A stretch of 64,000 nt of DNA from Halobacteriovoraceae bacterium (GTDB lineage: Bacteria; Bdellovibrionota; Bacteriovoracia; Bacteriovoracales; Bacteriovoracaceae): the NCBI GenBank assembly GCA_963719505.1, contig CAVRCF010000001.1:928001-992000 (forward strand). Reading direction: 5' to 3'. Position 1 is the first letter of the stretch. Every line of letters starts with the position of its first letter. A program made the translations under genes and the position numbers. The notes under the pieces are model-generated. The model saw only the letters and a list, made by a program, of their open reading frames with translations. It was not told the DNA's origin and searched no databases. Positions 4,242-35,104 of the stretch are shown here, in pieces.

Positions 4242-5375
4242 TTAAAAGGCTTTTTCTAAGTCTTCGATTAAATCTTCAACATCTTCAATCCCAACGCTTA
4301 GCCTAATGAGATTATCGTGTATCCCAATTTCTTCTCGAATATTCTTTGGTACTGATGCATGAGTCATAATTGCAGGGTGCTCAATGAGAGATTCCACGCC
4401 GCCTAAACTTTCGGCAAGAGCAAAAAGTGAGACCTTTTCTAAAAATCTTTTTGATTCTTTGAGGCCACCTTTTAAAAAGAACGTAATCATTCCACCAAAA
4501 CCACTCATCTGCTTTTTTGCAATGTTGTGTTGAGGGTGGGATTTAAGACCGGGGTAGATGACTGACTCAACCTTTGGGTGGGCCTCTAGATACTTGGCAA
4601 TTTTAATAGCATTCTTTTGATGAGCTTCCATTCTGATCGCAAGAGTCTTTATCCCTCTAAGAACAAGCCACGAGTCAAAAGGGGATTGGCTTGGACCAAT
4701 TGAGTTTTGAAGGGTCAACACCTTATCAAAGAAAGGCTTACTATTTGTCATTAAGGCGCCGCCGACAACATCGGAATGACCATTTATATATTTTGTCAAA
4801 GAGTGAACCACGACATCAGCTCCTAGCTCCAAAGGCTTTTGAAAGTAGGGAGACATAAAAGTATTATCGACGAATGTTTGAACTTTATAAGCTTTGGCCA
4901 AGTCACAAACTTTTGTTATATCCGTTATTTTCAACATGGGATTGGTCGGAGTTTCAAGCCAAATAATCGAGGGCTTGAATTCTTTCATTTGCTTTTCGAC
5001 GAGTTTTAAATCCGTTGTATCAATAAACTTTATATCGTGAATCTCATTAAAGACTGTGGTGAATAGTCTATAGGTTCCACCATAAACATCATCACCACAA
5101 AGCACGCGAGATCCCTTAGGGAGAGAATGCATGATAAGAGTCATGCAAGAGAGTCCAGAAGCCGTAACAAGGCAATGCTTAGCGCTTTCAAGGCTTGCTA
5201 AGTTTGTTTGAAGCCTCGTTCTGGTGGGATTATGGCTTCTTGTGTACTCGTACCCATTATGTTTTCCAGGACTTTTTTGCACATATGTTGAAGTTTGAAA
5301 GATCGGAGGCATTATTGCCCCTGTCTCCTTGTCGGGTTCACCACCAACATGAATAACTTTCGTTGAAAATTTCAT
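4242..5375 (-). CDS. Cystathionine gamma-lyase/synthase (PLP-dependent transsulfuration enzyme)
   Basis: YTRSHNPTR, ETPTNP, HSLTKYINGHSD (PLP lysine) and LAESLGGVESL motifs. Confidence 0.93.
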   Translation of the reverse strand: MKFSTKVIHVGGEPDKETGAIMPPIFQTSTYVQKSPGKHNGYEYTRSHNPTRTRLQTNLASLESAKHCLVTASGLSCMTLIMHSLPKGSRVLCGDDVYGGTYRLFTTVFNEIHDIKFIDTTDLKLVEKQMKEFKPSIIWLETPTNPMLKITDITKVCDLAKAYKVQTFVDNTFMSPYFQKPLELGADVVVHSLTKYINGHSDVVGGALMTNSKPFFDKVLTLQNSIGPSQSPFDSWLVLRGIKTLAIRMEAHQKNAIKIAKYLEAHPKVESVIYPGLKSHPQHNIAKKQMSGFGGMITFFLKGGLKESKRFLEKVSLFALAESLGGVESLIEHPAIMTHASVPKNIREEIGIHDNLIRLSVGIEDVEDLIEDLEKAF

Positions 5376-25125: not shown

Positions 25126-25181
25126 TTATTAATCCCTATCCTAAATTAATTACTCTTTATTGGATTGGACCCCGTTTTAGG

Positions 25182-25985
25182 CTACCTTTGATTTTCTAAT
25201 AAATACTCTTTCGGGCTCAACATGCCAAGCCCTGAATGAGGTGCTATTTCATTATAATCTTTCATCCAACCCTTGATCATCTTCAGCACTACATCCGCAC
25301 TGTAACAGTCGCTGTTGTAGACATAGTCTCGCTTGATCGTTTTCACAAAAGCTTCACTCATTCCATTTGATTCTGGGCTATAGGCAGCTGTATAACAGCT
25401 TTTTAAACCAAGATGGTTCGCCAAATTCTTAACAGAATGGGCTCGATAAATACTTCCTCTATCCGATAAAAATTCTATCGTTCTCAAAGTTTTGTAATCT
25501 TTAAACCTGTATTTAACTGCTTTCAGCATCAGACTCTCAATATCAGTCGCAAGCAGTGGTGATTTTGAAGCTACAAATGAGAGAACCTCTCTGTCACATG
25601 TATCTAAAACAAAAGAAACAAAAACTTTTTCTCCGTTAAAGCACTTAATCTCAAAACAATCACTGCACCACCTTGTATTTGAATGCAGAGTCATTACTTT
25701 GCCAGTTGGAGTGTGAGTTCTCGTCACAGCAGACTTTGGAAGAAGAAGTCCATTCACTCTCATGATCCTGTAGATACGCTTCTTATTAAGCCTTGGATGC
25801 CCCAGAGTAAGTCGAAGACGATTGACCATGGCCGTAACTCGTTTATAACCATAAGTTGGTCGTAAGGAAACAATTGACCTAATCTGGCTTAGTATTTCTC
25901 CATCTTCAGCTTTAAAGTAAAATTTCTTTGAGCTAGTCGTTTTATAAATTGATTTTGAGTGGACTCCAAACATTTCACAGATCAT
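25182..25985 (-). CDS. IS3-family transposase OrfB (DDE integrase core)
   Basis: YGYKRV, RWCSDCFE, LSDRGSIY, PESNGMSEAFVKTIKRD, PHSGLGMLSP; IS2-like. Confidence 0.93.
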   Translation of the reverse strand: MICEMFGVHSKSIYKTTSSKKFYFKAEDGEILSQIRSIVSLRPTYGYKRVTAMVNRLRLTLGHPRLNKKRIYRIMRVNGLLLPKSAVTRTHTPTGKVMTLHSNTRWCSDCFEIKCFNGEKVFVSFVLDTCDREVLSFVASKSPLLATDIESLMLKAVKYRFKDYKTLRTIEFLSDRGSIYRAHSVKNLANHLGLKSCYTAAYSPESNGMSEAFVKTIKRDYVYNSDCYSADVVLKMIKGWMKDYNEIAPHSGLGMLSPKEYLLENQR

Positions 25986-26347
25986 TTTTTTTGATCCTTT
26001 CTTTTTGAGTTTGATGAATTCTTTTGCTCGATCAACTCCTGTTCCAAGATCTTTTTTTTATAAAAATCGATGATATCCTGAGCGACCTCTTCTCTGAGGG
26101 TAGATTCACCAACTTTCTTGAGTAGTTTATCTTTGTCTTTTTTAAGTTGATCAATTTGTTTCAAAAGGTCAGCAACATCGATATTAGTATCAGGTTTGTC
26201 TTTCATAGCTCTTTTCCATTGGTATAAAGTTACTGCATTTATATCATGGACTCGTGCTAAAACTGAAATTGGAACACCTTTTGAACGATGTTCCTGTAGA
26301 ATTTGGATTTTTTGATCTTCGGTAAATCTTCTTCTTTTTCTTTCCAT
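25982..26347 (-). CDS. IS3-family transposase OrfA (HTH)
   Basis: RRRFTEDQKIQIL...LARVHDINAVTLYQWKR; A8 slippery run at the orfA/orfB junction (AAAAAAAATGAT). Confidence 0.9.
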   Translation of the reverse strand: MERKRRRFTEDQKIQILQEHRSKGVPISVLARVHDINAVTLYQWKRAMKDKPDTNIDVADLLKQIDQLKKDKDKLLKKVGESTLREEVAQDIIDFYKKKILEQELIEQKNSSNSKRKDQKK

Positions 26348-26591
26348 TTTTTCCTCCGTTAAGAGGTAGCCGTCAAAAGGGGGTCACGAACATTATCTAT
26401 TCGTCAAACTTTAAAAAAAACTTTAAAATTTTCTTTAATATTAATGAATATTTATTTGATGCTCACTTATTGAGCTATTCCGATAGTGCGGTAATCACAT
26501 TCAAATGTTAAAGGTGTGACCATTGCTTCACCAGATATACTAAAGCTCTTTGAATAGTCGCTATAGCTATCAGTTTTTATATAGTCCAGTC

Positions 26592-27987: not shown

Positions 27988-28497
27988 AAACTCCTTGAAC
28001 ATTACGTCCATTTAAAATTTAGATACAACATAAAGGCCAAGTAAAACACCTATGGACTATTTTTCGTCATAATCCTTCGTTACCAACACAATAGCGGAGA
28101 AAGTAAATTGATTTGAATAAAAATTGTGACATCTTTATAAACGACATAGATGCTCCTTGTTTTAACCTTTATATTAATATTCGGGGCAAAGTAGCCATTC
28201 AGTAATTGGCATGTTGAATTGAAAATATTACTTATTTAAAAATTAAGCTTAGACTAAATGGGGTCCAATCTAAACTTGAGGTCTATTTAATTTAAATATA
28301 ATTAGAGAGAAGTATTATTCAAGTGTCACAATTTTTTTTTATATCTACTCTCTTCCTAGGCTAGTTTTCGGATAGAAAATATATGCTGACTCCTACATTC
28401 CTTCTATACATAGCTGTTCTGGTACGTGCAGTTTAATGTGTGCGTTCACGGTAATGGAGTAATCAATCGGCTTGCTTAACAAATTAAAGAACTTTTT

Positions 28498-28896
28498 ATG
28501 AAATCCGAGCCTAGCGTTTATAACTATAGAAGTTTTAGGAAATACTTAAATGACTGGATTCTCTATGGGAGAGGTAATCCATACTTTTCCTTGGGAGTTG
28601 TTACAAGGGACATTGAGCTAAGTTCGATAGCGGAATTTTCGAACATTTTAAATGGAAGAAGAACTGTAAGTTCAAGGCTTTTACATAAAGTTATAAATTA
28701 CCTTAACCTCAGTCCTAAAGAATCATCTTTTTTAGAGCTTATAGGCGGGATTGATAGAAATAAAAAAGACATATTTATTTGTGATGTACTTGTAATGTGC
28801 GCTGATTTTCTTGTCTCTGTTGAAAAAGGGAATTTAGAGAGATCGGTTTCTTGTATCTATTGTAATTCTAGTTTTACTAAAACTAAAAAAGATTAA
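28498..28896 (+). CDS. HTH protein resembling the N-terminus of the TIGR02147 family (short form)
   Basis: YRSFRKYL...FSL...FSNILNGRRTVS...LNLSPKESSFL, similar to the N-terminus of 49956-50747. Confidence 0.65.
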   Translation: MKSEPSVYNYRSFRKYLNDWILYGRGNPYFSLGVVTRDIELSSIAEFSNILNGRRTVSSRLLHKVINYLNLSPKESSFLELIGGIDRNKKDIFICDVLVMCADFLVSVEKGNLERSVSCIYCNSSFTKTKKD

Positions 28897-28949
28897 AGGC
28901 TTTTATATATAAAAGAGATTCCAAGTGGATCGTTTTCGGAGGAAAAGTT

Positions 28950-29360
28950 TTGAAGGTAACTAAGGGCCGCGTTCTATCGGTGTTGCTGGTTGAGGATGAG
29001 TGTGAATTAAGATCTGTTATAGCATTACTTATACATTCACTAGAGATTTTTTCATTCGTTGTTGAGGCACGCGATGGAAAAGAGGCAATACAAAAAATGA
29101 CTAATCAAAAGTTTGATTTAATAATTATAGACTTGAATATGCCGAAGTTAGGTGGATTAGAACTTTCAAGGTATATAAAACAGGATCAGAAATTAGCTGG
29201 CACAAGTATTATCATTATGTCAGGAATGATTTCAGGTAAAGACGTCCAAGAATTGAAAAATATTGGCGTAACATCGATTTTGACTAAGCCTGTAGGACTT
29301 ATAAAGCTAAGAGAAACGATAAGCAAAGCCTTGAAGCCAGCTCTTTTAGCTCAATTTTGA
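28950..29360 (+). CDS. Stand-alone response regulator receiver (CheY-like)
   Basis: LLVEDE, DLIIIDLNMPKLGG, LTKP. Confidence 0.88.
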   Translation: MKVTKGRVLSVLLVEDECELRSVIALLIHSLEIFSFVVEARDGKEAIQKMTNQKFDLIIIDLNMPKLGGLELSRYIKQDQKLAGTSIIIMSGMISGKDVQELKNIGVTSILTKPVGLIKLRETISKALKPALLAQF

Positions 29361-29545
29361 ACTATCCTATATTTAAGGGAGCTAAAAGCATTCTTCAAAT
29401 TACTGATATTACGTATAGATATGTTATATGACTTGAATTTTTTGATCTTAAACCCTTACCAAGAAATGCGTCACAATTTTTGCTCCGCGTTATTATGTAT
29501 TTATTTAAAATTAATAAGACAAACTAACCAAGGGAGAACATTATT

Positions 29546-30670
29546 ATGAAAAAATTATTAACAGGAGTTTCATTTTTAGTATGTATTTTAAATTTTACTT
29601 CTCAAAAGACAATCACAAGTACTTTTCAATCTAATCTCAGTTTTTTAAGGTCACCATCTTCAGTCGAAGACGTTGGTATTATAGGCCCTGAAGGCGATGT
29701 CATTTTATTTTAAAAAGACAAGGATCGCATCATTGTAAAGAACTGTGGAACCAACACAATTCTTGGACACACTCCTGCTGAGGCAAGAAAAAACTGTGAT
29801 GGGCCTGTAAATAAGGTTCCTATAGAATCTTTTAAAAATGCTTTAAGAAGTTTAGTTTCTACTGATCGTTTGAATGTGCTTAAACCACTTACACCAGAAG
29901 AAGTTGATGCTTATAATAAAAATGAGCCAAGTTTAGATCAGATTGAGAAAATGGGTATTGAACTTGATCGTATTAATGCTTTTATAACGGCTTATGGTGC
30001 AGAGAACGCCAACCTTGTACGAAAAGAGGAATTAGTAAAAGCACTTAGATCATCTTCGACTCGTGTTGATGCAATTAAAAAAATTAATGTAGAGATTAAA
30101 AATACATTTACACTAATAACAAGCCAAACAAAACTAACTCTTGCAAAATTTAATACAGATAAAGACAAGTTTCTTTATACTGTTTTGAAAAACTTTGATC
30201 CAACTCAGAAATTTCCATGTGGACTTAAAGGTTCTGTGGATGAAAGAATTAAAGACTGCTCTTATCAATTAACTTCTGAGAAAGAAGGCTTTGTTCTGGT
30301 GACAAGATCAAAAGACTTTAAAGAAGTTCATAAAGAAGTTTCAACAGGTCTTTTTTGGAGTGATAGACTTCCAAAAACTATGAATCATTACAGCGCAGAA
30401 AAAGCTTGTAATTCAAGCTTAAAAGAAGTTGCAGGTATTTCAGGCGTTACTTGGAGACTTCCATCAAAAGAAGAATACGAACAAGCCGAGAAAAATGGTA
30501 TCCGCAAGGCACTACCAAATATGAGCTACTGGTTCTGGTCTTCTTCGGTGCACCGTAACAACTCTGACTACGCGTGGCTGTTCAACGGCTACGACGGCTT
30601 CGTTGACTACTACTACCGCAGCGACGGCAACGACTACGACTACTACTCGGTTCGGTGCGTAGCGCGCTAG
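29546..30670 (+). pseudogene. DGR target-like secreted protein with C-terminal DUF1566/C-type-lectin-fold domain; one in-frame TAA at 29711-29713
   Basis: SD + ATG 29546 (MKKLLTGVSFLVCIL), same frame as ORF 29870-30670. TGLFWS, WRLPSKEE, FWSSS, AWLF and VRCV motifs; terminal variable-region-like segment. Confidence 0.8.
30524..30670 (+). repeat. DGR variable region (VR) candidate with GC-rich IMH-like end
   Basis: Abrupt GC-rich shift; 31 of the 48 codons after ATG 30521 end in C (AAC/TAC/GAC/GGC/TTC etc.) and only one ends in A; ends TCGGTTCGGTGCGTAGCGCGCTAG. Confidence 0.8.
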
Positions 30671-30705
30671 GCGTGGAAAAGTATGATTTGATTATTTTAT
30701 AATTT

Positions 30706-30724
30706 GGACCGCGACTAGCGGTCC
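30706..30724 (+). promoter_or_regulatory. Stem-loop downstream of VR (DGR target-recognition hairpin candidate)
   Basis: GGACCGC-GACTA-GCGGTCC perfect 7-bp GC stem, 35 nt after the target stop codon. Confidence 0.7.
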
Positions 30725-30755
30725 TTTAACTTTTTATGAACATGGAATTATTTGA

Positions 30756-31139
30756 GTGGCAAGATTTCAACATTTACCATTGTATAAAGCAACTTATAGT
30801 CTGTGCTTGAATGCCCATAGACTCAAATTAAAAATGCCAAAACGTCTAAAGCATGATGCTGGGGAAGCATTTGTAAGCAATTGCTTGAAATGTGTGAAAA
30901 TAATAATTATTGCAAATCAAATACAAGAAAAATATAACGAGACGACTTTTTCCCAACTTTTCAGGACCGGGCGACGAGCTGGTCCAAATTCTAATATCAT
31001 AGCCTGGAAGCATTCGGGCTTTTGTATCCAAACTTTGAATAGAGTTTATATTCTCGTTAATAACCTTCATAGATCCATTTTAAGCAACACAAAAAATGGA
31101 TTTTATCGTTTTGTATACGTGCTCGTATTTATCATTTAG
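30756..31139 (+). pseudogene. avd: Truncated Avd-like (DGR accessory variability determinant, four-helix bundle) protein
   Basis: First ~60 aa (MARFQHLPLYKATYSL...MPKRLKHDAGE...IIIANQIQEK) follow the Avd/four-helix-bundle pattern; the remainder looks unrelated. Confidence 0.65.
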
Positions 31140-31220
31140 AAAATGGAATATTTTGCAAAATGGGGAGGGGGGACTATAAGTAAATATTCAATGTGTCGAT
31201 AAAGCATTAAGGGAGATTTT

Positions 31221-31868
31221 ATGAAATTTATTTTTTTATTTTTGTCGATTACTTTTACTTTTTCATCGTTTGCACAATTAAATGAGAAACATATAAGACC
31301 TTACAGTGACTTTCCCGAAGAAGGTTATCCAGAATTTGAAAAAATTGGAATTCCAATAGGAACAACTTTTAATTTTCAAAAGCCAAAAAAATCCGAACTT
31401 GACTGTGAGCCTGGTATTGCAAAGGGGGGGAGCGAAAGGTTAAATGAACAGGATGCAGCGGTGTAAAAGTTCTATACTTCTTCTGGTGAGCAGGTCTGTA
31501 ATAAAACATGGGAATTTTTAAAGCTACTTGCTTTAGGGGGTGATGCTTGTTCACTTTTTTACTTTAAAAATTCACCTTCTAATATGAGCTGCACTTTAAG
31601 AACTATTTTACCTGATTGGGATACTTTAACTTATATCTTTCAAGAGAAAAACTGCCCTATACTTTCGTGTAGAGCAGCTCTTGCCCCTAGGTACAGAAAC
31701 TTCACCAGGGAAATAAATGATAGTTTAGGGAAATATGTCTCATTTGAAGTTAACAGAGCTTCTACTGACGAGGCACAATTGGTCAATTCTAATAGAGAAA
31801 ATGGCAAAAACTTTGAAACTGAGTCTAAGCCCAATAAAGTTAGACATCACAATGCAACTGAACAGTAG
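31221..31868 (+). pseudogene. Secreted Cys-containing protein with a single in-frame TAA (31464-31466)
   Basis: ORFs 31221-31466 and 31584-31868 share a frame with no other stop between them; signal peptide MKFIFLFLSITFTFSSFA. Confidence 0.65.
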
Positions 31869-32309
31869 ATACACCATTTCAAATATGATGTTTACGGTAG
31901 GTTGTAGCCCAATTATCAAATATACACTTTCTCCATCTTCAAAGAAGTCAGAAATGACAAGGGGTAAAGGCGAGATACACAACAAATAGAACCTAGAGGA
32001 TTTTTGAGTTGCTAAATCGATAAAGGGTATGCCAGCAAAAGCTGTGTTGACGAAAAGAGAGTTTGAGATATGAAAGGTAAATATCCTAGGACTCATTGGT
32101 TATCAAAAAGAGGAAAAATTTATCGATCAATAGCTTAGACTAGGGCCCTCCCACAAGATAAATAGTAGGTTCATAGCTATTTATTCTTTTCGCTTCGTTC
32201 TCCCGAGAAGGTGTTGTAAATACTCAGTTTTAAGCCGGATTAACAAGAATACCAAACCATGTTATCATGTAGAATTGATAGTCATCAAAATGAAAATATT
32301 ATTTTGGAC

Positions 32310-33308
32310 TCATATCATTGTATGCTGCTGAAGTGGAGATTTAATATTTCTCACTTGATCTTTTTTTAGCTTTGGTGGTGTTGTTAGTCTACTCATAAAG
32401 GTAAGATAAATTTTTTCAGGTAAATTAAATTTCACCCATGAAAAAACGTTTGCATCGTATGTACCTTTAATTCTTAGAGGTAAAGTAGGTCGGTCAATTA
32501 AATTAACAATCTTATCTGCAATAATATCTGGAGTGAATTTAGTTAGCCTTAAGTGGAGGCGAATAAGTTTTTCTAAAAATAGAAAACGTTCATTTTCGAG
32601 AGTATCCATATTGTGAGTCTCATTGGGCAATATCATTTTGTCGTATGCATTTGATGCTACCACTCCAGATTCAAATAGAGAAACCTGTATACCATCTTTT
32701 TTAAGTTCGTAATAAATAGACTCTACCTCACCATCTAGAGCGTGCTTAGAGGCAGCGTATGCGCCTTTAAAGGGGCATGATACGAATGCTATTGCAGATG
32801 AGTGAAAGATTAGCTTTCCTTTCGATTTTTTTAGATGGGGAAGGGCTAGTTTTGTAAGCTCAATTGGCCCAATGTAGTTAACGGCCATTAACAGTTCTCT
32901 TGTTTGTCGTGTTATTGAGTGAAATGGTGATCTCGCTGAAATTCCAGCGTTATGAATCAGAGTGTCTATACGTCCAAAGTGATGTATTGCTTTATTTATG
33001 GCATCTTTTCTCTCTTGTTCATTAGAAATATCAAGAGGGAGAATCAATACACTTCCTTCTTTGCTCTTAATGCCTGCTTTTAGAAGAGAGCTTAATGAAC
33101 CTTTTCGCCCTGTTAACACAATCTTATTTCCACTTAAAACTAATTTTTTAGCAATACTTAAGCCTATTCCTGAGGTGGCGCCGGTGAGAAATATAACTTT
33201 TTGGTCATTAAGTCCTTTTTTGACAGTGGCAGATCTATCGCCTGATGTTGTAATTTGAGTCAATAGTGATAAAAGTCTTGATACTTCCGTAAAGTAATTT
33301 CTTTTCAT
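32310..33308 (-). CDS. Short-chain dehydrogenase/reductase (SDR)
   Basis: TGATSGIG, HNAG, YAASK. Confidence 0.92.
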   Translation of the reverse strand: MKRNYFTEVSRLLSLLTQITTSGDRSATVKKGLNDQKVIFLTGATSGIGLSIAKKLVLSGNKIVLTGRKGSLSSLLKAGIKSKEGSVLILPLDISNEQERKDAINKAIHHFGRIDTLIHNAGISARSPFHSITRQTRELLMAVNYIGPIELTKLALPHLKKSKGKLIFHSSAIAFVSCPFKGAYAASKHALDGEVESIYYELKKDGIQVSLFESGVVASNAYDKMILPNETHNMDTLENERFLFLEKLIRLHLRLTKFTPDIIADKIVNLIDRPTLPLRIKGTYDANVFSWVKFNLPEKIYLTFMSRLTTPPKLKKDQVRNIKSPLQQHTMI

Positions 33309-33440
33309 GTGATCCCTCTCTGAGCCTATTTAGATTTCTTAAGCTTTATTTTATGCAAGGTCTTATTAGAAAGTGGAAAAAGATTGTGACTCCTTGAATA
33401 CTGCGTTGTTTTGAATGGTAATTTAAGATAAAATAAAAAA

Positions 33441-33467
33441 TAAAGAAAAAATTTATATTACCGATAG
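33441..33467 (+). promoter_or_regulatory. Probable sigma28-type promoter
   Basis: TAAA-N15-ACCGATAG immediately before ATG 33474. Confidence 0.55.
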
Positions 33468-33473
33468 GAAATT

Positions 33474-33929
33474 ATGAAAAGCTTCAAGAGGGTTGTTTTA
33501 TTTACTTTTTTCATTAGTTTCAATACTCTTTCTCAGACTCACACTACTGGTGGGACGGGACCTGATCCTACTGTGACTAATGCTGAGACAGATCGTATTT
33601 GTTTCTTATTTGATCAAAAAGTAGACAAGATTGAAGATAAGCTCTTGGGAAAAACCTTGGTTTGGAGCGAGAGAAAAGTCGCTATTGTTAGATACATTGA
33701 CGAAGCTGTAGTTAGGGCTCGGGTTAACAGAACCCAAGGCTCTCTTAAGGTTGATGGGGATTTTTCTAGTCCTTGTCAGTGTGATAATGTAGCGGACTTA
33801 CACTCTCAGCTATTAGGCCTTTATACCCAGTTGAAAGACTGTCCAGCTCAAAAAAATCGATATCAATTCATTCAAAAGAACAATTTGATCAAGAAGTTAT
33901 TTGAAATAACAAGGGAATTGAGTTTGTGA
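33474..33929 (+). CDS. Secreted hypothetical protein
   Basis: Signal peptide, GGTGP motif, 4 Cys. Confidence 0.7.
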   Translation: MKSFKRVVLFTFFISFNTLSQTHTTGGTGPDPTVTNAETDRICFLFDQKVDKIEDKLLGKTLVWSERKVAIVRYIDEAVVRARVNRTQGSLKVDGDFSSPCQCDNVADLHSQLLGLYTQLKDCPAQKNRYQFIQKNNLIKKLFEITRELSL

Positions 33930-35104
33930 AGGAAAGTCGTGAAACGAGATTTTTATCTGTTTTTAACTTAGCAAGATCAAACTATGCACAGTTCAAGACG
34001 AGAATCACTAAAAAGGATCTCTCTCAAGTAGAAAAAAAACTTCTAACGGCTTATCTACTCTATACAAAAAAAAATAAAACAGAATGCCTAGATCTTCTTA
34101 AGTCTACCTCCACTGACTCTAATTATTTCTTTGAAGGTGTTCGCCTTTATTTTATAGGGTTAGCCTTGAATCATTTTGGTACCTATCGTTTTGCGATGGA
34201 GCATCTCTTGCAGTCTGTTTCGACTTTAGAACAAGTGGGTAATAGGGACTTTATTATTAACCCTCTAGCCCTAATTATTGTTACTTTGGCAAATCAAAAA
34301 AAGAGGAAAGAGCTTTTGATTTATAACGCCATTTTAGAAAATCAACAACCTTATGATGATTACACCACTATCATGAAATACCATGCTCAGTCTGTTGCCT
34401 ATTTAGAACTAGGGGAATTACAAAGAGCGGAGCAGCTAGCTCTAAGTGGCTTAGAAGGGAAGAAAAAGGCATCAAAGTATTTTGGGTCAGGTTTTTTATT
34501 AGTTCTTTTCTCTATCTATATAAAGCAAAAGAAGTTTTCAAAATGTTGGCTAATCTTAGACCAGTATAAAGCCTCAAGAGGTTTTATGGTAAAAGAGAAC
34601 TACAAGTATATGAAGATCCTTTTGGGATTTATCAGTAAAAGTGCTCCTCTGTATGTTTATGCAAATGACTTTAAAGAGATTCCAGAGCTTTTAGATCAAC
34701 TTGAGGTTATTAAGTTTCTCTCTGTTGGAAATATTAAGGGTGCTGAAGATTCTTGGAAAAGGCTCTCGATGAATAATAAAAGCCTTTATAAAAAGAATTT
34801 TACCTACAATGGAGAAGTAAGTCTGTTTTCTCTGTCACTCGATAAATTAATGAACGATAAAAAGTTAAGTTTTGAATTATCAGATGTCGAAACTGATGGT
34901 AAAAAGCCAATTGAGATTATCCATGAAGTTATTGTCATTCATAATGTTACGATCTCTAAGAATGATCTAGTCTCTCTCATTTGGGGAGAAGATCCCGATG
35001 AAAAAAATCTAGCTCGCCTTAGAAAAATAATTTCCCGTTATAATAGTAAGAGAGGAGAAAGAGAGATCATATCTTTTCAAGATACCTACAAGAAAGCGAG
35101 CTAA
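33926..35104 (+). CDS. TPR-like helical protein with C-terminal winged-helix DNA-binding domain
   Basis: C-terminal ISKNDLVSLIWGE...RLRKIISR resembles OmpR-type wHTH; GTGA overlap with the upstream gene. Confidence 0.65.
   Translation: MKESRETRFLSVFNLARSNYAQFKTRITKKDLSQVEKKLLTAYLLYTKKNKTECLDLLKSTSTDSNYFFEGVRLYFIGLALNHFGTYRFAMEHLLQSVSTLEQVGNRDFIINPLALIIVTLANQKKRKELLIYNAILENQQPYDDYTTIMKYHAQSVAYLELGELQRAEQLALSGLEGKKKASKYFGSGFLLVLFSIYIKQKKFSKCWLILDQYKASRGFMVKENYKYMKILLGFISKSAPLYVYANDFKEIPELLDQLEVIKFLSVGNIKGAEDSWKRLSMNNKSLYKKNFTYNGEVSLFSLSLDKLMNDKKLSFELSDVETDGKKPIEIIHEVIVIHNVTISKNDLVSLIWGEDPDEKNLARLRKIISRYNSKRGEREIISFQDTYKKAS

Follow-up and report, generated by a model that had tools for sequence, protein, structure and literature searches.

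The described systems closest to the locus reported here are DGRs with DUF1566-type target proteins. In their account of target classes, Wu et al. (2018, PMC5758913) group targets with DUF1566, DUF823 or Fib_succ_major motifs and variable regions (VRs) of the CLec2 type as 'category d', which made up 14% of the surveyed set and includes the Legionella lipoprotein LdtA; DUF1566 targets are also named in the target descriptions of several other DGR surveys. The DGR of Bordetella phage BPP-1 (mtd-avd-TR-brt) serves in the same account as the reference for the IMH and for the inverted repeat downstream of it, and an inverted repeat of this kind is described there as required for efficient DGR homing (PMC5758913). 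In Bdellovibrio bacteriovorus, fibre proteins carry C-type-lectin-like domains at their tips, such as the C-terminal domain of Bd2740 (8oks), and the description of these fibres reports no DGR for them, the term appearing there in a cited reference only (Caulton et al. 2024, PMC10769870). A search of the full-text literature on DGRs and Bdellovibrio returned nothing on DGRs in predatory Bacteriovoracaceae; the supplementary tables of the surveys may list some.

We analysed a stretch of 64,000 nucleotides (the window) from the genome of a Halobacteriovoraceae bacterium (G000). The locus within it very probably represents the target end of a chromosomal DGR that has decayed: the VR is frozen, the machinery is deleted and the target gene is interrupted. 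Because DUF1566-type targets are already known, we regard it as a decayed case of a described class. Its features, with window coordinates, are as follows.

29546–30670, + strand: DGR target gene encoding an Lcl_C/DUF1566 protein, 374 codons, a pseudogene as assembled
29711–29713, + strand: in-frame TAA at codon 56 of the target gene, from translation
30335–30661, + strand: Lcl_C domain (PF07603, formerly DUF1566) of C-type-lectin fold, from Pfam
30533–30667, + strand: VR, from NNC codon bias; hypervariable codons at about 30551–30646
30647–30679, + strand: GC-rich conserved end of the VR spanning the stop codon (IMH-like), from conservation against the orthologue L050
30680–30705, + strand: AT-rich spacer containing GATTTGAT..ATT, a motif conserved in G000, L050, L031, G021 and G057
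30706–30724, + strand: GC hairpin with a 7-bp stem and a 5-nt loop, from sequence and folding
30756–30935, + strand: 5' part of avd, a DGR accessory gene, from its GTG start to about codon 60
about 30929–30936, + strand: deletion or rearrangement junction, the avd break point
30936–31139, + strand: 67 codons, up to the stop, that continue the frame of the avd fragment but bear no relation to avd

With the Legionella pneumophila DGR and its target LdtA the locus has in common an Lcl_C/DUF1566 target with a C-terminal VR in a C-type-lectin fold, orthologues with a lipoprotein signal, and a chromosomal cassette that includes avd; in contrast to it, G000 has no TR and no RT at the locus, its avd is truncated and its target carries a stop codon. 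With BPP-1 it shares the order target-VR-avd, the GC-rich end of the VR and the GC-rich inverted repeat past the VR (the BPP-1 layout being that outlined in PMC5758913). Unlike the phage-borne BPP-1 element, the G000 locus is chromosomal: no phage genes were seen in the window around it and no relatives of the target were found in viral contigs, in keeping with the description of the element as chromosomal and non-phage in an earlier note on this DNA. The BPP-1 hairpin differs in its distance and loop from that of G000, whose 5-nt loop hairpin lies 35 nt past the stop and is preceded by a conserved spacer rich in AT.

The end of the target gene shows the codon signature of a VR. In the last 48 sense codons (30524–30667), the third letter is C in 31, G in 10, T in 6 and A in 1, and C-ending codons make up 31/48 of this tail and 33/326 of the rest of the frame (Fisher p = 7e-16). 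The GC content is 56.9% in the tail, 33.3% in the rest of the gene and 36.8% in the genome. Lysine, glutamate, glutamine, methionine and tryptophan, which no substitution of A in an AAC codon can produce, account for 24% of the protein body and for 0 of the 26 residues in the variable stretch; the stretch is likewise free of these five residues in 14 of 61 aligned sequences. The start of the VR was set where the TR/VR homology begins in the comparable intact element of genome G224, described below. The earlier note had reported an abrupt switch to NNC codons at the C-terminus and a terminal peptide YWFWSSSVH..AWLF.G..G.V....R...VRCVAR, and our counts and translation agree with it on both. The metagenome contigs of one relative break at 30532 and restart at 30627, which are the VR edges, at a depth of 2.5–5 that is no proof of heterogeneity. 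Many short contigs from the metagenome runs X2 and X5 over 30606–30647 match a simple GACTAC-type repeat and are uninformative about this organism.

To characterize the protein, we read it from 29714 onward as 318 residues. Residues 208–316 of this reading matched the Lcl_C family with 44.3 bits (cut-off 34.9, E = 2.5e-11), and Fib_succ_major matched weakly, below its cut-off. The N-terminal ~200 residues belong to no Pfam family and are mostly helical in the AlphaFold2 model. Mean pLDDT in this model, built from an alignment of 19 sequences, is 79, and most of the C-terminal domain reaches 85–97. A Foldseek search with it gave no match at E ≤ 0.001; the top row was the C-terminal domain of Legionella Lcl (8q4e_A, E = 2.8e-3, TM 0.61 on the target, rmsd 2.6 over 110 columns), followed by snake-venom and human C-type lectin-like domains and then by the C-terminal domain of Bd2740 (8oks_B, E = 1.2e-2, TM 0.60 on the target). 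A profile search of the PDB sequences also matched 8q4e (E = 3.4e-4). From these model matches and the profile match we conclude that the VR sits in a C-type-lectin fold, so that the profile and structure checks proposed for the protein (PF07603 and AlphaFold) both came out in favour of that fold. Bd2740 and the target are both lectin-like surface domains in predatory bacteria, with a sequence identity of 15%.

The reading frame runs from the ATG at 29546 to the TAG at 30668–30670, as sequence and translation show, and is broken by the TAA at 29711–29713, so the target gene is not intact as assembled; 318 codons remain open after this stop. In the four full-length orthologues (L031, L008 in genome G021, L032 and L050) the same column holds TAC (Tyr) throughout. 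The TAA is probably real but could be an assembly error. The first ~34 codons (29546–29647) are not homologous in the alignment to the lipoprotein signal of the orthologues, and tblastx similarity to them begins at 29648. Lipoprotein signals are recognized by their lipobox; the lipoprotein-type signal of each of the four orthologues ends in L-x-G-C-S-H, and the N-terminus in G000 has no canonical L-x-G-C. The alignment thus suggests that the 5' end of the gene may have been replaced too, and the earlier description of a secreted or exported protein is doubtful for the G000 copy, with its different N-terminus. We also looked for the stretch in sequencing runs: none contains it (best share, 0.13 of the sampled words), and assemblies from four metagenome runs over the target locus yielded contigs of relatives only.

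The region from the end of the VR through the hairpin is 89% identical (70/79) between G000 and its metagenome orthologue L050; in the gene body, 151 of 294 third codon positions differ between the same two sequences. The end of the VR is putatively IMH-like, an IMH being definable solely against the IMH* of a TR. The spacer motif recurs in genome G224 as well as in the sequences listed above. As the earlier note had stated, a perfect stem-loop, GGACCGC-GACTA-GCGGTCC, stands 35 nt past the stop codon; we located it at 30706–30724 and found that it folds at −9.1 kcal/mol (z = −5.6; none of 200 shuffles as stable). Hairpins at the equivalent position fold in all five relatives tested (z −3.9 to −5.6), and L031 (G:C to T:A) and G021 (C:G to A:T) have compensatory changes that leave the stem paired. 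The hairpin of genomes G057 and G224 has a wholly different stem, GGGTGGC and GCCACCC around a 4-nt loop. Since the G000 hairpin also satisfies a simple intrinsic-terminator pattern, it does not by itself point to a DGR; its position and conservation suggest that it is the target-recognition repeat of one. An Rfam scan of 28000–34000 gave no family at E ≤ 0.1.

Directly downstream lies an avd fragment which, like the in-frame TAA, is absent from the earlier note. The ORF of 127 residues at 30756–31139 matched phrog_3206, 'Avd protein of DGR' (E = 8.8e-6), over residues 4–64 only. NF033474 scored 15.6 bits, far under its cut-off of 80, and Pfam matched neither the whole ORF nor its first 60 residues. 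Among 5.8 billion proteins the ORF had 9 non-self matches, seven of them 126 aa long; the six closest 126-aa Avd proteins are 81–88% identical to it, over only 46% of its length. These 126-aa matches carry PF22296 (bAvd), which scored 41.8 bits in P0004, above the cut-off of 40, and 34.8 bits in P0002, below it. In the alignment, identity ends after ..ANQIQEK, and the rest of the G000 ORF is unrelated to the conserved second half; the Avd of G057 likewise matches residues 1–59 of the fragment only. Contigs of close relatives in two metagenome runs (X1 and X3), 92–96% identical over the parts that align, depart from G000 after 30928 and encode the Avd consensus past that point. From the alignment break and these contigs we conclude that avd is cut at about 30929–30936 and fused to foreign sequence. 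The G000 ORF therefore holds the first ~60 codons of the gene and not a full-length Avd.

No homologue covering 30936–31139 was found in the search of 5.8 billion proteins. We estimate that 67 codons would stay open past the break with a chance of about 1 in 100 at that composition, which counts against the decay reading. The same 67 codons were considered as the C-terminus of an RT joined by in-frame deletion and rejected: in local alignments to six DGR RTs, between 81 and 204 of 300 shuffles reached the score of the real sequence. Just past the junction, at 30964–30985, lies an imperfect inverted repeat rich in GC (GGACC .. GGTCC). The following ~1.1 kb (31140–32300) holds no convincing gene and gave no Pfam or Rfam match; it contains a small ORF with a signal-like start (31221–31466) and overlapping short ORFs in different frames (31584–31989), and it may be further decayed DNA. 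Nothing in 30900–32300 is repeated in the genome, so there is no insertion-sequence end at the avd break. Elsewhere in the window, at 25160–26392, there is an IS3-type insertion sequence (an HTH_Tnp_1 ORF and an rve integrase ORF), of which at least 7 further near-identical copies occur across contigs C1, C2, C3 and C5.

The missing parts of the cassette were sought in the whole G000 assembly (3.69 Mb in 5 contigs, 83.5% complete by marker genes). In blastn the VR matched itself only, all other matches being ≤ 24 nt with E ≥ 0.4. A scan in which mismatches were forgiven wherever the genome has A reached no more than 43–51 true matches over 151 positions, and these top sites were all tracts rich in A. 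RVT_1 had no match in the assembly (3 candidates scored), with the control positive in 4 of 14 genomes, and the DGR RT of G057 had none either (4 candidates scored). The best E value of an HMM from six DGR RTs of the family was 1.8 over the 53,722 six-frame ORFs of ≥ 30 aa, and an Avd HMM over the ORFs of G000 found the local ORF only and no second piece of avd. Comparison of the G057 cassette by tblastx and tblastn with 29500–33500 and with the whole window revealed no 3' half of avd and no remnant of a TR or RT, in line with the earlier statement that neither is in the window; the search for a TR copy and a DGR-clade RT genome-wide, which that note had proposed, found neither in the assembly. 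Because the assembly is only 83.5% complete, we treat this absence as strong evidence and not as proof.

The layout of the G000 locus is the same as that of two intact cassettes in family genomes, on contig C59 of G057 (L049) and contig C3 of G224 (L081). Both run in the order Lcl_C lipoprotein target, stop, AT-rich spacer, GC hairpin, avd of 124 aa, TR and RT, with the spacer motif GATTT..ATTATT and the RT motif GIPIGNLTSQ; in G224, all 19 mismatches of the 129-nt TR/VR core fall on adenines of the TR. G000 shares with them the layout, the spacer motif, the position of the hairpin and the VR scaffold FWSSS..AW.F.G..G......SVRCVA, and their avd is 39% identical to the G000 fragment over its 59 retained residues. 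Outside Lcl_C, their targets are no more than distantly homologous to the G000 protein. The G224 TR was tried as the template of the G000 VR and rejected, as mismatches occurred at 14 of 33 A sites and at 31 of 93 other sites without enrichment; more generally, with the TRs of G224 and G057 as templates of the VRs of G000, L050 and L031 the mismatches were not enriched at adenines, and these TRs are non-cognate. Two further observations concern the intact cassettes themselves. The G224 cassette contains two small ORFs (107 and 156 aa) on the opposite strand between avd and TR (L081, 2545–3313), an unusual insertion, and the VR of L049 has an 'nn' gap at about 3550, as is expected of a hypervariable region in a population assembly.

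Other DGRs occur in the family. Avd-family matches were present in 11 of 81 sampled family genomes, and G023 has another intact DGR with an FGE-sulfatase-type target. Genomes G099 and G100 (L045, L046 and L047) harbour a second DGR type, consisting of an HTH protein, an avd of 114–118 aa and a 333-aa RT; there the TR follows the RT, is of another type and encodes GGNWNNG...IGFRCV. No target of this second DGR was located.

Homologues of the target at E ≤ 1e-20 were found in 41 of 237 family genomes, and in none of the three genomes of the same genus; the neighbouring SDR gene had no match at E ≤ 1e-30 in these three either. Most homologues are ordinary Lcl_C proteins free of VR-like codon bias. 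The full-length orthologues share 68–75% identity with the G000 protein: that of G021 (L008), those of a Bacteriovoracaceae MAG contig (L031) and a Bacteriovoracia MAG contig (L032), and that of the metagenome contig L050. The flanks of L031, L032 and L008 have nothing in common with the window outside the gene.

The comparison of G000 with L050 gave the following differences at codon positions 1, 2 and 3.

Gene body, 294 codons: 55, 33 and 151
VR, 42 codons: 11, 8 and 4

At third positions, then, the VR is much better conserved than the body (p = 9e-8), whereas its first two positions vary, and the same VR pattern was obtained when G000 was compared with L031 and L031 with L050. The protein sequences vary accordingly: over 61 sequences, comprising 60 full-length members of 102 proteins at E ≤ 1e-40 plus G000 (three partials among P0012–P0074, P0075–P0112 and the window's own product as a hit were left out), column entropy rises from a mean of 1.06 bits in the body to one of 2.48 bits in the VR. 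The variable positions of the VR reach 3.1–3.6 bits, with almost no variation at W, SSS, S, AW, F, G, G, R and SVRCVA. Judged against orthologous VRs and not against a TR, the substitutions in the VR fit the pattern of adenine mutagenesis.

At none of the 18 homologue loci examined does the adjoining 1.5 kb contain more of avd than a fragment of its start. Among the orthologues, successive stages of decay can be seen. L050 has the VR, the hairpin and the start of avd, after which the contig ends. In L031, 10 avd codons are followed by an ORF of 396 aa that looks transposase-like by eye. In G021 a multi-copy repeat begins directly past the hairpin and the contig ends there; the ~83 nt of post-hairpin sequence (L008 on contig C39, about 2597–2679) occur at 13 other places in G021, mostly contig ends, and are probably an insertion-sequence end that landed in the place of avd. 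In L032, part of the middle of the gene itself has been duplicated in place of the stop, hairpin and avd: the duplicate past its VR (4568–4729) is 59% identical at the protein level to the window at 30158–30319. G021 contains a distant RT only, and no second VR-like copy was found in G021, G099 or G100, the other searched genomes with an orthologue. The cognate TR and RT were thus found in none of the four genomes with an orthologue that were searched as a whole (G000, G021, G099 and G100).

The following course of events most probably produced the locus. In its ancestral order, the element would have consisted of a target lipoprotein of Lcl_C fold, the VR with its GC-rich end, the spacer, the hairpin, avd, TR and RT; the missing TR and RT would have stood downstream of avd. 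Error-prone copying of TR adenines by the RT would have yielded a cDNA that took the place of the VR, as the substitution pattern suggests; in this way ~25 codons on the ligand-binding face would have become NNC. A deletion or rearrangement would then have removed everything past about codon 60 of avd, TR and RT included, and the target would have acquired a TAC to TAA nonsense change at codon 56. The VR would be the frozen last version, which the element in G000 could no longer diversify. Since the VR is still pure NNC and has 57% GC in a genome of 37% GC, the loss of the machinery was probably recent.

That a DGR was involved at all is hardly open to doubt. The reading of the gene as an ordinary Lcl_C protein, with a tail rich in Tyr, Asp, Asn and Gly, a local codon bias and a plain terminator behind it, could appeal to the many Lcl_C homologues of the family that have neither a VR-like bias nor avd within 1.5 kb, and to the terminator pattern of the hairpin. 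We nevertheless consider it scarcely credible, as an avd fragment follows immediately downstream, the layout is identical to that of two intact DGRs, and variation at codon positions 1 and 2 goes together with conservation of position 3 and of the non-coding 3' flank, which ordinary protein evolution would not produce. The interpretation of the gene as a DGR target, with an NNC-type VR in an Lcl_C fold, a hairpin and an avd fragment laid out as in the intact cassettes, therefore stands.

The earlier note had left it open whether this target is served in trans or is a relic. The avd gene cut after about codon 60, the nonsense codon in the target and the failure to find a TR or RT favour the relic, and they speak against a supply in trans. 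DGRs with remote targets have been described, and the VR could still be diversified by a TR and RT located on an extrachromosomal element or in genomic sequence missing from the assembly; the incompleteness of the assembly (83.5%) leaves room for them, and the VR has not decayed toward the AT-rich composition of the genome. We think this highly improbable, because the local avd is cut, no other avd, RT or TR was found in 3.69 Mb, a premature stop interrupts the target, and the related genomes G021, G099 and G100 have no second VR-like copy, the DGR of the last two having a TR of another type. It is also unlikely, if less so, that only the machinery was lost and that the target remains intact and functional with a fixed VR, the TAA being an error of assembly or consensus. 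The 318 open codons past the TAA and its single C-to-A difference from the TAC of all four orthologues would agree with this, and the low completeness of a 5-contig assembly could itself reflect consensus errors; the aberrant N-terminus, with 34 non-homologous residues and no L-x-G-C lipobox, instead fits a decaying gene. We therefore favour a chromosomal DGR whose target end has decayed, with its machinery deleted and its target interrupted.

For annotation this means that the locus should be described as a DGR remnant, made up of a target pseudogene and an avd fragment, and not as an active, secreted hypervariable protein. The family to which the window's organism belongs does have DGRs that target lipoproteins of DUF1566 type, the nearest named orthologues being from Bacteriovoracaceae MAGs, and the cassettes turn over rapidly: they are intact in G057 and G224 and broken in G000, L031, L032 and G021. 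Full-length avd genes of the G000 lineage are present in metagenomes. We tentatively raise a broader idea, which we regard as doubtful: these elements would form a DGR lineage, absent from the literature searched and native to predatory Bacteriovoracaceae, that diversifies the lectin tip of a surface lipoprotein and is repeatedly lost by deletion or insertion sequences, leaving a frozen VR (an episodic 'diversify, then freeze' use). The surface lipoprotein family has ~100 homologue clusters in public data and may, speculatively, take part in the recognition of prey surfaces; if it does bind them, the VRs would constitute a natural library of prey-recognition variants.
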